5,722 bases of DNA from a virus, in IMG/VR virus record IMGVR_UViG_3300045988_048678, positions 1 through 5,722 of that record; one strand, 5' to 3'. Position 1 is the first letter of the stretch; each line of letters opens with the position of its first letter. The translations under genes were made by a program, and so were the position numbers. Under the pieces are notes generated by a model. That model was not told where the DNA came from. It searched no databases and saw nothing but the letters and a program-made list of their open reading frames with translations. Shown here in pieces: positions 526-5,722 of this stretch.

Positions 526-546
526 AGTGTTTCGTTGCGTCTCCCC

Positions 547-591
547 TCACCTAGCCCCTATAACCCTCTTGACGTTATAGGGGCTAGGTGA
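547..591. repeat. 18-bp perfect inverted repeat with a 9-nt loop (tcacctagcccctataac / cctcttgac / gttataggggctaggtga) in the intergenic region upstream of VP4
   Basis: Verified base by base. There is no U-tract on the coding strand after it, so it is not a terminator for minus-strand transcription. It lies 22-68 nt upstream of the VP4 ATG. Confidence 0.75.
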
Positions 592-647
592 CACAATTTT
601 TAGCAATTTTTTCCAATTCGTTATGTTTAAATGTTGCATCCCTGAAT

Positions 648-664: not shown

Positions 665-835
665 TCATTCACCGTGTTCATTCTTCAGAATAAAAGCAAG
701 TTGATTTATTGCTTCTCTTACACAGTCGCTCTTGTTGTACTTTACGCATTTGAAGTATTCATAGAGCCAATTCAGGTTTTCTACTTCTTTTGTTGTTAGG
801 TTGATGTTCATTCTTTCGACAACTTGGCTTTTCAT
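665..835 (-). CDS. Hypothetical 56-aa protein with a ribbon-helix-helix-like pattern (MKSQVVERMNINLTTKEVENLNWLYEYFKCVKYNKSDCVREAINQLAFILKNEHGE)
   Basis: Below the track's size cutoff. The ATG at 835 is preceded by AAAGGGGTATACC (SD-like) and there is an in-frame stop at 856..854. The predicted beta-strand INLTT, helix KEVENLNWL, turn and helix SDCVREAINQL resemble CopG/Arc-type RHH repressors. It sits immediately downstream of the promoter and operator. Confidence 0.4.
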   Translation of the reverse strand: MKSQVVERMNINLTTKEVENLNWLYEYFKCVKYNKSDCVREAINQLAFILKNEHGE

Positions 836-1886: not shown

Positions 1887-3530
1887 TTAGATCGTGTCAA
1901 GGCCGGGAATGTTGTAGACCGGCATTGCTCTCGTCCACGTCTGGTCGAAGTAGAAGTTGCAAATGAACTGGTGATTGTTTGCGTTTTGCACTGCGATCGT
2001 TCTGTCAATGTTTTCTTTGCCTTCTTTGATCCATGTGTCGGAGAGAGTCGGCAGGCTGCTATATTTGTCTGCGTAGTGCCACGCATCCAGAGTTTGAGCG
2101 AAGTTCGACCGCATTTCACAGGTTACTTCGTTCGTGCGGTACTTATAATCCGCCCACGCCTCTTGGTAGCCGAAGACTTCTTCATCTTTTTCGTTGCCTT
2201 GTGCATAGATTTCTTGGTTTAATACGGCCTGTTCGCCGAGGTTTGCTAACATCGGGTCGTAGTAGCTGAAGCGTGTGCTGCGTGTCCACATTCTCCGCAG
2301 TCCGTATTGATAACTATGCTGTACTCTTACGCACGCCAGACCGATGACAAAGCCGTGTTCCGTCGCCGAGTAGGTGCATATGTGTTGGCTGTTGGTCGTC
2401 ATGCTGTAGGCGCCTGTGTTGCCTTGCGGACTGGTTTCGTTCGTGCTGGACGTCTGAACAACCTGATTGATGTTGATTGGTACTCTGCACCCACCGATGT
2501 ATTCGCTGCGGTCAAGTCGTGCGTCCGGGCTCGTAACGCCCCACGCGCCTTTCAGGTATTCTTTGTACCTCGTGCCGGTTCGTGCATCGCGTTCGAGGAT
2601 ATGCTGTACTGCGATCGCGTTTCGGAGTTCGTTGATGGTTGTTGCGGTTACGCTTCCGAGGTCTGCCGCTAAATAAATGTCGTCTCTTGTTTTATCGTCT
2701 TTGATGTTTATGAATGGTTCTCCCAGTGTTGCCTGTATTCTCACTGAGCCGTTTTGATAGTTGTTGTAATCTGACAAATACAGGCCATATCTGTTTTTAT
2801 CGTTGTTGTTTTCCAATTTATAATATTCTTTATCTTTGGTTCCGGATGCGTATTTGATATATGCGTTTCCGTTTAGTGGCAGTTTTACCGCTTCGCCTTT
2901 TTGCGGCGAAGGGAGGCAGGATGTGAAGTAGTCTTTGTGTTTTGCTACTTTCAGCGGCAGCCCACCCGCTTCTGCGTCAGTGAGTTTGTTTCCTGTGTTG
3001 CTTCCTGCCGTCGTTGCGTCCGTTTTGCTCATGGTTACAGGCTGCTGCAGATTTTCGTCTCTAAACCACTCGTTCCAGATTTTCGCGTAAGCTCTGAATG
3101 GCAGACTGTTTACTTTTAGGTTTTCTACTCCGGTTGGAATGCCGAAGTAGTCCGCAATGGTTCCGTTTGCCCATCCTCCTGTTGGTGCTGTCGTCACCGG
3201 CGTTGTGTATTCTACATCTTCTGCCCAGAAACTCGAATCGTTCTGACCCATCAGGTTCTCGAAGTGCTCCCAGAGCAAGCGTGCCGGCACGAAGAACATG
3301 TAATAGTCGATGTCGCAGTTATCCATAACCGGATAAAGCGGTGTGCTCATGCGCACCAGACTGTTCAGGTCGATTCTGAAGGTGTCCGCGGGAAGTACTT
3401 CGTCGACGTAGATTGGTACTAGATCGCCTTCGTTGAGAGTTGTCAGCAGACTAAAAGGCCGTTTGAAGCTGCTGCGCCTGATTTCTGCATGTGGTACTTG
3501 CGTGAAATGCTGTTCTGCGTTTCGGCTCAT
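1887..3530 (-). CDS. VP1: Major capsid protein VP1 (Microviridae F-like, gokushovirus type), 547 aa
   Basis: The N-terminus FTQVPHAEIRRSSFKR...TT...GDLVPIYVDEVLPADTF...RMSTPLYPVMDN...DYYMFFVPARLLWEHF matches the conserved gokushovirus VP1 pattern (FxQVP..IxRSSF...DEVLPGDTF...TP..PxMDN...FFVPxRLxW). SD AAGGAGGGAG lies upstream. TAA stop at 1889..1887. Confidence 0.95.
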   Translation of the reverse strand: MSRNAEQHFTQVPHAEIRRSSFKRPFSLLTTLNEGDLVPIYVDEVLPADTFRIDLNSLVRMSTPLYPVMDNCDIDYYMFFVPARLLWEHFENLMGQNDSSFWAEDVEYTTPVTTAPTGGWANGTIADYFGIPTGVENLKVNSLPFRAYAKIWNEWFRDENLQQPVTMSKTDATTAGSNTGNKLTDAEAGGLPLKVAKHKDYFTSCLPSPQKGEAVKLPLNGNAYIKYASGTKDKEYYKLENNNDKNRYGLYLSDYNNYQNGSVRIQATLGEPFINIKDDKTRDDIYLAADLGSVTATTINELRNAIAVQHILERDARTGTRYKEYLKGAWGVTSPDARLDRSEYIGGCRVPININQVVQTSSTNETSPQGNTGAYSMTTNSQHICTYSATEHGFVIGLACVRVQHSYQYGLRRMWTRSTRFSYYDPMLANLGEQAVLNQEIYAQGNEKDEEVFGYQEAWADYKYRTNEVTCEMRSNFAQTLDAWHYADKYSSLPTLSDTWIKEGKENIDRTIAVQNANNHQFICNFYFDQTWTRAMPVYNIPGLDTI

Positions 3531-4027: not shown

Positions 4028-4259
4028 TTTTCTTTTCCTCTTCCAGATTGTAAACGAGTTTCGGCTGCTCTGCGTAGATCGCGCCGCTCTCGTTGTCATA
4101 CTTGCCCATGTAGTAGATTCTGCGGTCGTCGCAGTCTGCTTTTTCGCTTTCAAGCATGATCCACTTGAAGTTGCGCTCTGCTACTTTGTCCAGCATGATC
4201 ATCAGGTTGCCGAAGGTCCCGGCCAGTTCGTCTTTGATTGCGTAGATGTCATAAATCAT
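4008..4259 (-). CDS. Hypothetical 83-aa protein (MIYDIYAIKDELAGTFGNLMIMLDKVAERNFKW...)
   Basis: The ATG at 4259 is preceded by GAGAGAGGAGCTTGAAA (SD AGGAG with a 7-nt spacer). The track's TTG start at 4265 is only 2 codons upstream. Confidence 0.5.
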   Translation of the reverse strand: MIYDIYAIKDELAGTFGNLMIMLDKVAERNFKWIMLESEKADCDDRRIYYMGKYDNESGAIYAEQPKLVYNLEEEKKNAKENL

Positions 4260-4452
4260 TTTCAAGCTCCTCTCTCACTGCTTGGCTGTTTTTTAATCCT
4301 TCTTTGATAAGTGCTCTGAGGATTTTTCCAGCGCTTATTTTTTCTCCTGTCTCTTCCTCGATCAGCTCTTGAAGTCCGTCTACCAGCATCATTTCTTTGT
4401 AGCCCAGTTTTACGCTGATTCCAAAGCTTTCGAGGTCTTTTACCCGCTTCAC
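4249..4452 (-). CDS. Hypothetical 67-aa protein with a helix-turn-helix-like segment (GEKISAGKILRALIKEGL); GTG start
   Basis: The open frame runs from the TAA at 4555-4557. It is the same frame as the 40-aa ORF. No ATG occurs before residue 21, so the track starts it at GTG 4452. The SD of the next gene is embedded in its 3' end, a coupling arrangement. Confidence 0.3.
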   Translation of the reverse strand: MKRVKDLESFGISVKLGYKEMMLVDGLQELIEEETGEKISAGKILRALIKEGLKNSQAVREELENDL

Positions 4453-4721: not shown

Positions 4722-4749
4722 TTTGCACCTCCTTTTCTCTGATTTTATC

Positions 4750-4792
4750 AAAAAAAAAAAAAACGCAAGAGTGGTTTTTGTTCACTCTCACG
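4750..4792 (-). terminator. Rho-independent terminator on the coding (minus) strand: a 10-bp stem with two G.U pairs and a 9-nt loop, followed by U14
   Basis: The minus-strand RNA reads CGUGAGAGUG-AACAAAAAC-CACUCUUGCG followed by 14 U (plus-strand A14 at 4750-4763). It lies after the VP4 / 71-aa gene pair. Confidence 0.55.
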
Positions 4793-4804
4793 TTTTTGTT
4801 ATAG

Positions 4805-4844
4805 GTCATGCGGTCGGCGCGGTGCGCCGAATGAAAAGCATGAC
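4805..4844. repeat. GC-rich compound hairpin in the intergenic region
   Basis: Outer stem gtcatgc (4805-4811) pairs with gcatgac (4838-4844). Inner stem tcggcgc (4814-4820) pairs with gcgccga (4824-4830), with a 3-nt loop ggt. Checked base by base. Confidence 0.6.
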
Positions 4845-4856
4845 GTGGCTTTTGTG

Positions 4857-5072
4857 TTAGTAGCCGGATTTTCCTTTATTTGCATAGCTGCTTATGATTT
4901 TTTGCACGCTTCCGATTGTTGATTTTTTGTTAAGGTTTATGTTTGTGTCTATGTAACAAGCTAGAATCCATTCTAGTAGTTCGTCGGTTGTGTTTTCTTT
5001 GTCTAAAAATTGGTTTTCATATCGTTCATACTGTTCTATGTCTTTAAGCATTTTTCTGCAAGCTTTGTTCAT
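4857..5072 (-). CDS. Hypothetical 71-aa protein immediately downstream of VP4 (the VP5 position in gokushoviruses; no homology recognised)
   Basis: The ATG at 5072 is preceded by GGGAGGAAG (strong SD) with good spacing. The start lies 1 nt after the VP4 stop. The sequence is non-repetitive and protein-like. Confidence 0.5.
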   Translation of the reverse strand: MNKACRKMLKDIEQYERYENQFLDKENTTDELLEWILACYIDTNINLNKKSTIGSVQKIISSYANKGKSGY

Positions 5073-5073
5073 G

Positions 5074-5722
5074 TTATACTTCCTCCCTGATAAGCTTTTT
5101 CATGCGTTCTTGCATTTTTTTGTCTTTCAGGTTATAATATTCTTGCATGGTTAGGCCGGTCTGTTTGAGCTGAGCAAATAGTGCATCGTTCGCGATTCTT
5201 CGTCTTTCGCGTTTGATGGCTTTCAGTTCTTCGGATTCGGCTTTTTCTGTTGTTTCTTCGATTTCTTTTTCCTGTTTTTCTGTAAGTGGTTTTGCGTTTG
5301 AGTGTTCCAGATCGAAGAGTTTATCAAAGTATCTTGGCGGCTTACAAATTTTTCCGTTTTTTAGTTGGATTTGGTCTTTACTGTAAATCTCTTCTGCATG
5401 GTCGTAGTAATATCTTGCACCGATTCCCGGTTTTAGTGACATTCTGTTGTCTTCTGGTAGAATTCCTAGTTCTTTGTAAAATTCTTCTCCTTCTTTTCCA
5501 TAAATTTTTTTTGTGGTGTATCCTGCTGTGTAAGACATTGAATTCCATGTTGCTGGTGATAGAACCACGAACCCAAGACCCCATACTTTTTGGATCCATT
5601 CACAGTTGTAGTATACAGCTCCTTTTTTGCGTTTGTATTCTTTCAGTTCATCTTTTTCAATTGGTAAATCATATACGATTGCATGGTAGTGAGGTCTGTG
5701 CGTTGTTCCGCCGTATTCTCCG
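5074..5722 (-). CDS. VP4: Replication initiation protein VP4, C-terminal part (197 codons to the TAA at 5076..5074); total length about 372 aa
   Basis: The frame is open from the window edge and in phase with the 1..525 segment, because 5667 is divisible by 3. RCR motif III with the two catalytic tyrosines (SYTAGYTTKKIY, compare phiX174 gpA Y-x3-Y-xxKK) is at about 5506-5532. The 'M' that the track shows at 5568 is an internal GTG (Val). Confidence 0.9.
   Translation of the reverse strand, partial: GEYGGTTHRPHYHAIVYDLPIEKDELKEYKRKKGAVYYNCEWIQKVWGLGFVVLSPATWNSMSYTAGYTTKKIYGKEGEEFYKELGILPEDNRMSLKPGIGARYYYDHAEEIYSKDQIQLKNGKICKPPRYFDKLFDLEHSNAKPLTEKQEKEIEETTEKAESEELKAIKRERRRIANDALFAQLKQTGLTMQEYYNLKDKKMQERMKKLIREEV
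5668..5722. repeat. Second copy of the terminal redundancy (equals 1-55)
   Basis: Identical to positions 1-55. Confidence 0.9.

Follow-up and report, generated by a model that had tools for sequence, protein, structure and literature searches.

The 5,722-nt viral DNA IMGVR_UViG_3300045988_048678, analysed over its whole length and called the window below (all coordinates and strands refer to it), carries a perfect hairpin at positions 547 to 591, just upstream of VP4, the gene for the HUH replication protein (Rep) of this gokushovirus-type genome. Judged by comparison of sequences, this hairpin is probably the viral-strand (double-strand) rolling-circle origin recognized by VP4, with a probability of about 0.7. 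The stem covaries among relatives, the loop and the 3′ flank are conserved on one defined DNA strand, the orientation of the module relative to the genes differs between lineages, and base composition and substitutions are asymmetric between the strands. The module appears to be a hairpin-presented variant of the origin type of phiX174 and plasmid pC194, common to most sampled gokushovirus lineages. In the clade of the window it is inverted relative to the genes, and the chances are about even that this clade packages the strand antisense to its mRNAs.

The two arms of the hairpin, TCACCTAGCCCCTATAAC at 547-564 and GTTATAGGGGCTAGGTGA at 574-591 (plus strand), were found by a repeat search to be 18 nt long, 100% complementary and separated by a 9-nt gap. 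No other inverted repeat of more than 10 nt in the window is perfect; the remaining listed pairs are 76-93% complementary. Following folding as single-stranded DNA (ssDNA), z-scores of −7.05 (minus strand) and −7.52 (plus strand) were obtained, and 0 of 200 shuffled sequences were equally stable; as RNA in its mRNA context, the hairpin gave z = −5.9. An earlier reading of the DNA, made from the sequence only, had described a perfect 18-bp stem with a 9-nt loop at this place, which repeat search and ssDNA folding both confirmed. The loop CCTCTTGAC (565-573, plus strand) contains the core CTTGA(T/C) at 568-573, within which a nick is predicted between G571 and A572 by homology with phiX174 and pC194. 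Read on the other strand, the loop is GTCAAGAGG. On the plus strand of the genome, the pattern CTTGA[TC] has this single occurrence. The 3′ flank motif TGACAC (589-594, plus strand), of which the TGA lies inside the base of the stem, ends 23 nt after the predicted nick. Together with its flanks, the hairpin makes up an origin-like module at 541-597 (plus strand), as delimited by covariance model R1. The sequence-only reading had taken the mRNA-sense strand to be the relevant, packaged one, whereas the nick-like motif and the flank 3′ of it are conserved on the opposite (plus) strand.

All recognizable genes are located on the minus strand of the window and none on the plus strand. The hairpin is intergenic, approximately 20 nt upstream of the VP4 start codon, and stands where it had been placed before, between a 56-amino-acid open reading frame (ORF56, 835 to 665, minus strand) and the VP4 ATG (525-523, minus strand). 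On the mRNA strand, the hairpin is followed immediately by a Shine-Dalgarno-like GGGGAGA (546-540, minus strand), which ends 14 nt before this ATG, so that the description of the VP4 Shine-Dalgarno sequence as poor was fair; in relatives, the same place is taken by GGAAAGG or GGAAGGAGG. No U-run follows the hairpin on the mRNA strand, where GGGGAGACGCAACG comes next. Likewise, with the mRNA-strand stem followed by GGGGAGACGC, the hairpin does not have the form of an intrinsic terminator, and a terminator scan called neither strand, in agreement with the earlier statement that it is not a simple terminator. On the plus strand, a run of five T residues starts 5 nt past the stem. Rfam, searched with the entire window (E ≤ 1), yielded no match.

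Conservation was first analysed in 47 relatives with a VP4 identity of 50-97%. A profile search using the VP4 alignment subsequently added gokushoviruses at only 31-43% VP4 identity, and a second search, seeded by one of these, added 78 more, resulting in a total of approximately 130 sampled related genomes with VP4 identities down to about 30%. In the first-round relatives, the hairpin is located approximately 17-28 nt upstream of the VP4 ATG, except in L028, where it is placed elsewhere. The stems diverge yet are nearly always perfectly paired, as exemplified by TCACCTAGCCCCTATAAC, TCAGTGGGCCCCAATAAC, AGTGGGGGGAATAGAC, CACTGGGGGGAAATGT and TGTCAACTGGCCCATATAC. The loop is near-constant (RTCAAGARG on the coding strand), with the plus-strand-type reading CYTCTTGAT in most relatives.

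Pairing was counted in an alignment of 23 distinct hairpin sequences, using column shuffles (n = 500) and partners slid by 1-3 columns as controls. Paired bases were found in 96.9% of cells versus 79% in column shuffles, none of which (0/500) reached the observed value, and in at most 44% when partners were slid. Both sides had changed in a compensatory manner in 13 of the 18 pairs. In answer to a question raised by the sequence-only reading, the stem is held by such changes in relatives around a conserved loop. What that reading had named as refuting evidence, a stem that is not kept or does not covary in related genomes, was thus not encountered, and the outcome favours a functional structure. 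The loop core CTTGA(T/C) was kept in 66 unique hairpins covering all sampled clades. In alignment A3, T49, G50, A51, C52 and A53 were invariant and C54 was present in at least 90% of sequences, even in sequences whose 5′ partner bases (columns 7-8) differ or do not pair, which marks TGACAC as a signal in its sequence and not a mere consequence of the stem. This motif, or a close variant, was found in all clades, whichever the orientation of the module.

In most of the genomes added by the profile search and the second search, a CTTGA(T/C)-type loop, or a looser variant such as CTTGTT or CTTGCT, belongs to the strongest or near-strongest hairpin of the genome, and (G)GTGACAC or a close variant follows. 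Across the sampled genomes, the module is always found in the intergenic region upstream of VP4, at a distance ranging from approximately 8 to approximately 740 nt, with other open reading frames lying in between in Chlamydia phage 2 (Chp2) and others. In Chp2, the module consists of CTAGCGTATAAC agtctacttgatct GTTATACGCTAG GTGATAG (2904-2941), between VP3 and ORF8/VP4. In SpV4, it is located at 512-544, just past the Rep stop codon, with the loop attacttgttata, and phiMH2K carries a weaker version. Covariance model R1 was built from the 23 distinct homologous hairpins of alignment A3. In the window, it matched a single site, 541-597 on the plus strand, with 77.7 bits (E 1e-21), the minus strand giving 32.8 bits from the stem alone; strand-specific matches were likewise obtained in most other genomes. 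In phiX174, of which the origin has no hairpin, R1 gave no match.

The sequence of the stem does not follow Rep phylogeny, since L001/L027 (IMGVR_UViG_3300045988_001819) has an 18-bp stem identical to that of the window at only 66% VP4 identity, and the closer L002 (75% VP4 identity) carries a different one. The ORF56 protein is 96% identical to that of L041, though VP4 is only 58% identical, which hints at mosaicism around the hairpin. A recombination breakpoint near ORF56 in L041 was considered and rejected: nucleotide identity is 84% there versus 67-77% elsewhere, without a sharp breakpoint. L183 (JABLTM010015598.1) has a chimeric hairpin at approximately 3375-3430, consisting of an L029-type 5′ arm and a window-type 3′ arm, of which only the upper 9 bp pair. 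Either an assembly chimera or natural recombination at the loop, where a Rep nick site would lead one to expect a junction, could account for it. As evidence for recombination at the loop it was discarded, both flanks resembling one lineage and an assembly chimera being possible. L028 (IMGVR_UViG_3300006298_000061, a 6963-nt contig) carries a long G-run, GGGGGGGGGGGGGGGCGCGGGGGGCGG, between the usual flank and VP4, which is probably an assembly or sequencing artefact.

The orientation of the module can be read because the loop and the 3′ flank make it asymmetric. It is forward, on the coding strand, in Chp2, SpV4 and phiMH2K, in gut lineages L129, L132-136 and L142, and in almost all of the aquatic and environmental set. 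The inverted orientation, on the non-coding strand, was found throughout the clade of the window, which counts more than 60 genomes, and in the sister group of this clade, L138-141; in L130, L131, L134, L137 and L144; and also in L203 and L265. L146, L148 and L189-192 form an independent inverted lineage nested among forward ones. In the window, where every gene is on the minus strand, the module occupies the plus strand, unlike a phiX174-type origin, which stands on the coding strand. No second, forward-oriented origin was detected in the window, there being no coding-strand candidate with a distal element. Across lineages, the position upstream of VP4 is thus constant, whereas the orientation is not. 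A module that occurs in both orientations at a constant intergenic place fits a replication element and argues against an element of transcription or translation, for which a role is unlikely because the module tolerates inversion relative to every gene. A flip of the loop through recombination between the arms alone was ruled out, since the TGACAC flank flips together with the loop. A dif/XerCD site was set aside as well, the sequence being, by eye, unlike the dif motif, with no search made.

These data suggest a mechanism that would run as follows. In supercoiled replicative-form DNA, the 18-bp inverted repeat would extrude or melt, leaving the 9-nt loop of the plus strand single-stranded. 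VP4, with two catalytic tyrosines (YTAGYTTKK) as in gpA of phiX174, may bind the module through TGACAC, cut CTCTTG|ACG between G571 and A572 and become linked to the 5′ end. A host polymerase would then extend the 3′-OH of G571 and displace the plus strand; one round later, the regenerated site would be cut and the displaced strand circularized and packaged. The nick core and the distal element would operate at the spacing known from phiX174, the 3′ arm of the hairpin standing in for the phiX174 spacer. phiX174 packages its DNA as the nicked strand is displaced, the two processes being coupled. If the rolling-circle origin is inverted, the other strand would therefore be nicked, displaced and packaged, and the encapsidated strand of the inverted clade would be antisense to the mRNAs. 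We see an even chance that a single ancient module, homologous to the phiX174 origin, has been inverted several times, and that the inverted lineages, among them the large mammalian-gut clade of the window, are negative-sense Microviridae.

In ssDNA phages, synonymous sites of the virion strand are enriched in T (NNT codons), which was attributed to C-to-T deamination (PMC3278643). Four-fold degenerate sites on the coding strand were counted accordingly. In phiX174, used as a control without hairpin and with its origin on the coding strand, 70 A and 445 T were found, and in the forward gut lineage L132 there were 50 A and 388 T. The inverted window mirrors both, with 232 A and 52 T. Overall, its plus strand contains 38.3% T and 16.5% A, and the three intergenic regions are likewise T-rich on this strand. 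Between lineages, defined as clusters at 55% VP4 identity, the median four-fold AT skew was +0.59 for inverted (n = 9) versus −0.35 for forward ones (n = 22; Mann-Whitney p = 7e-4). Within the nested inverted group of L146, values ranged from +0.75 to +0.79, versus −0.80 to −0.86 in its forward sister group. Purine skew separated the two orientations no better than AT skew. Substitutions were assessed from singleton differences, polarized within clusters of close relatives. On the coding strand, G>A per G exceeded C>T per C in 8 of 8 inverted clusters (ratios 1.04-2.2), and forward clusters F_1 and F_4 showed the mirror image (0.58 and 0.60).

Several observations count against the proposed origin or against its corollary of antisense packaging. 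Cutting by VP4, the position of the nick and the assignment of the strand are drawn from homology with phiX174 and pC194, and the phiX174 origin lies inside gene A and has no hairpin, whereas the candidate in the window is intergenic, in the loop of an 18-bp hairpin. The lineages compared are not fully independent. Forward clusters F_2 and F_3 lack the expected substitution asymmetry, and forward genomes span four-fold AT skews from −0.87 to +0.49. Among the latter, L198, L212, L220, L229, L244 and phiMH2K (L123) are A-rich at synonymous sites (+0.25 to +0.49); several marine lineages and phiMH2K (at +0.25) lie on this A-rich side. The T-bias of ssDNA phages is therefore not universal with a coding-strand origin. 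Conversely, L265 (IMGVR_UViG_3300020043_004275; module at 4174-4225, minus strand; GC content 56%) is inverted and has a T-rich coding strand (skew −0.65), which may reflect a recent inversion or speak against the packaging inference. G.T versus A.C mismatches favoured the plus strand 5:1 in the window clade and were 9:9 over 109 unique hairpins, many of them at uncertain stem bases. Composition and substitution data mix mutation bias with codon selection and are not cleanly diagnostic of the packaged strand. Finally, genes on the complementary strand are essentially unknown in Microviridae, and the described members are taken as positive-sense (Roux et al. 2012, PMC3394797), which sets a prior against antisense packaging.

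The sequence-only reading had offered three functions for the hairpin: an origin, a complementary-strand initiation signal and a translational control element. The origin was strengthened by the covariation and by the core match with phiX174 and pC194, and translational control was weakened by the presence of the module in both orientations. A complementary-strand (single-strand) origin, that is, a hairpin in the packaged ssDNA that is read by host primase, PriA or RNA polymerase and primes synthesis of the replicative form, is rather unlikely to be the whole explanation. Such a signal would profit from the high stability of the ssDNA hairpin on both strands, the conserved loop could serve as a recognition site for a host factor, and the same role was proposed for covarying hairpins adjacent to Rep in other microvirus clades (PMC9865509). 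The sequence matches of the loop core and distal motif, however, are with the phiX174 viral-strand and pC194 double-strand origins and with no known priming site, no systematic search having been made for the motifs of priming-site families (phiX174 PriA site, G4 oric, plasmid ssoA). Moreover, the loop is common to phages from gut, marine and freshwater sources and to those of Chlamydia and Spiroplasma, which fits recognition by a phage Rep better than priming by diverse hosts. A priming role could coexist with an origin role, and would also imply that the plus strand is packaged.

We consider it quite improbable that the hairpin acts primarily as an RNA element in the ORF56-VP4 transcript, limiting translation of VP4, protecting the mRNA or serving as a site of processing or attenuation. 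It is true that the RNA fold is strong, that the hairpin lies inside a transcription unit headed by a consensus promoter and ends directly before the GGGGAGA motif, and that Rep proteins are usually held at low levels. Against this, the loop and TGACAC are tied to a defined DNA strand and occur in either orientation to the genes, giving different RNA loops per clade, and the distance to VP4 varies over the range given above. The missing U-run on the mRNA strand and the absence of an Rfam match point the same way, as do the imperfect stems in the window clade, in which mismatches are mostly A.C on the mRNA strand (5 of 6), a combination that RNA pairing does not tolerate. A side effect on VP4 expression is plausible, the hairpin being transcribed directly before the ribosome-binding site. 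It is also very improbable that the hairpin is an operator, palindromic and bound by a dimeric regulator such as the ORF56 product, or a transcription terminator or insulator. For these speak a perfect palindrome beside a conserved small open reading frame and downstream of a strong promoter, as well as the plus-strand T-run past the stem. The stem, however, drifts freely while remaining paired, with unrelated sequences in close relatives, which is the opposite of what is expected from an operator read by a protein, and the module also occurs where ORF56 has no detected homologue, as in Chp2, SpV4 and many clades. As for a terminator, there are no plus-strand genes to end, the scan called neither strand, and a canonical terminator is found elsewhere, at 4745-4800. 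The rolling-circle origin is therefore retained as the preferred reading.

Bases 1-55 of the window recur exactly at 5668-5722, forming a 55-nt terminal repeat; the window is thus a complete circular genome of 5667 nt. The gene set (Phage_F capsid, Chp2-type scaffold, ORF5 protein and Rep) and the size of the circle (approximately 4.5-6 kb being typical) are of the Gokushovirinae type. In GenBank, the nearest records, at approximately 72-73% nucleotide identity, belong to gut gokushoviruses of pig and human faecal origin. On the minus strand, VP1 is encoded at 3530 to 1887 (Pfam Phage_F, PF02305, E 1e-164) and VP2 at 1875 to 910, together with a Chp2-type VP3 scaffold (Chlamy_scaf, PF09675) and an ORF5-family protein (PF20577). 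The VP4 reading frame is split by the linearization point: its 5′ part occupies 1-525 and runs on across the circle junction into the 3′ part at 5074-5667, the frame ending at 5074. Rebuilt across the junction, VP4 is 372 amino acids long and matches Pfam PF23343 (REP_ORF2-G2P, E 8e-15). It contains HUH and two-tyrosine motifs (HYHAIVY and YTAGYTTKK), with HFHAVHF and YVAKYVNKK as counterparts in gpA of phiX174.

ORF56 (665-835, minus strand), upstream of the hairpin and in one transcription unit with VP4, was kept in 38 related genomes at 37-96% amino acid identity (tblastn) and had no match in Pfam or PHROG. Just past the VP2 stop codon, a consensus sigma-70 promoter, TTGACA-16-TATAAT with an extended −10 (TGTATAAT), is located at 879-906 on the minus strand (12/12 consensus matches). 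With a strict pattern, 18 of 49 relatives proved to have kept it, at approximately −350 to −430 relative to the VP4 ATG. This promoter probably drives a transcript comprising ORF56, the hairpin and VP4, and because it stands upstream at 906-879 (minus strand), the hairpin should be transcribed within the ORF56-VP4 unit. Downstream of VP4, a 71-amino-acid open reading frame (4857-5072, minus strand) has essentially no homologue in 90 related genomes (tblastn). The canonical minus-strand terminator at 4745-4800, in the second non-coding region, consists of the stem CGTGAGAGTG/CACTCTTGCG followed by T14. It adjoins a nested hairpin, GTCATGC..GGCGC-n3-GCGCC..GCATGAC, at approximately 4804-4846, which is a candidate complementary-strand priming site. 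For clues to the host, 185,579 GTDB genomes were scanned with the module, which gave no match. No cultured relative with an inverted module was found: the sampled tblastn matches among 3133 records were all metagenomic, as were the most frequent organism names.

Gut and aquatic viromes count gokushoviruses among their most abundant ssDNA phages. In the searchable literature, no experimental definition of a gokushovirus origin was found, nor a description of a gokushovirus origin motif or of a negative-sense microvirus; this coverage leaves out most subscription journals, with the original papers on Chp, SpV4 and phiMH2K among them, and the hairpin of Chp2 or SpV4 may have been noted earlier in such older papers. 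Stem, CTTGA(T/C)-type loop, stem and TGACAC, taken as a short rule, point to a candidate nick site in most of the approximately 130 sampled genomes, so that one protein and one oligonucleotide would suffice to test the question. Metagenomic microvirus genomes could likewise be oriented by replicated strand with this rule. If inversion indeed means antisense packaging, a major gut clade would be negative-sense, contradicting the assumption that all genes lie on the virion strand (PMC3394797). Strand-specific quantification, analyses of mutation spectra and codon usage, and composition-based host prediction would then be affected. The usual deamination signature of ssDNA would then appear mirrored in this clade as its extreme bias towards NNA instead of NNT codons. 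A-rich compositions would also be explained, such as that of PhiCA82, reported as 38.6% A and 21.6% T without comment (PMC3135560).

Of the known systems, the viral-strand origin of phiX174 is the closest comparison. Its 30 nt are recognized and cleaved by gpA, the nick lying between G4305 and A4306, and comprise three parts: a recognition sequence, a spacer and a key sequence. In the phiX174 record (J02482), rep_origin is annotated at 4306, in CAACTTG|ATATTAATAACACTATAGACCAC. Ungapped alignment of window positions 565-594 (CCTCTTG|ACGTTATAGGGGCTAGGTGACAC) with phiX174 4299-4328 gave 15 identities out of 30, CTTGA occupying positions 4-8 of each sequence. The two 30-mers close with a distal element 23 nt after the nick position, GACCAC in phiX174 and TGACAC in the window. 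The core is alike, CTTG|A(T/C): CTTGAC at 568-573 (plus strand) in the window, CTTGAT in most relatives and ACTTGAT in phiX174. Also alike is the distance from nick to distal element, the elements themselves (GAC-AC versus GACCAC) being similar and not identical. Both viruses are Microviridae and have an HUH Rep with two tyrosines in YxxxYxxKK. They differ in that the spacer of phiX174 is AT-rich and its place is taken by the 3′ arm of the hairpin (574-591) in the window, and in that the origin of phiX174 is on the coding (virion) strand, whereas the module of the window is on the non-coding strand.

According to older literature, the nick sites of pC194 and phiX174 are alike. The core of the pC194 origin, TCTTGATA, given as TCTTGATAATAAGGG, is the same as the predicted nick core of the window (PMC7072734). 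This core, TCTTGATA, is what the double-strand origins of the pC194/pUB110 family share with the module. Their flanks are unrelated, their Rep_1 HUH proteins belong to another Pfam family, and these plasmids are not packaged, so that the choice of strand has no consequence for a virion. Within Microviridae, reekeekee- and roodoodoo-microviruses carry conserved, covarying hairpins beside Rep, the role of which was left open and for which complementary-strand priming was discussed (PMC9865509). Like the module of the window, these are intergenic by Rep and have conserved loops and compensatory stem changes; they differ in belonging to other clades and in size (up to 64 nt). That study made no link to the phiX174 nick motif and presented no analysis of orientation.

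In architecture, the hairpin also resembles the origins of circular Rep-encoding single-stranded (CRESS) DNA viruses (circoviruses, geminiviruses and nanoviruses), which have a covarying stem and a conserved 9-nt loop and lie in an intergenic region beside rep. In these viruses, the 9-nt loop carries the HUH nick site, an arrangement common to the window hairpin, if its predicted nick is correctly placed. The Reps of CRESS-DNA viruses are of another HUH lineage, with a helicase domain. Their stem-loop consensus is the nonanucleotide NANTATTAC, and this consensus is not present in the window loop, which reads CCTCTTGAC on one strand and GTCAAGAGG on the other. Several CRESS-DNA families package a strand that is antisense or ambisense with respect to some or all genes.

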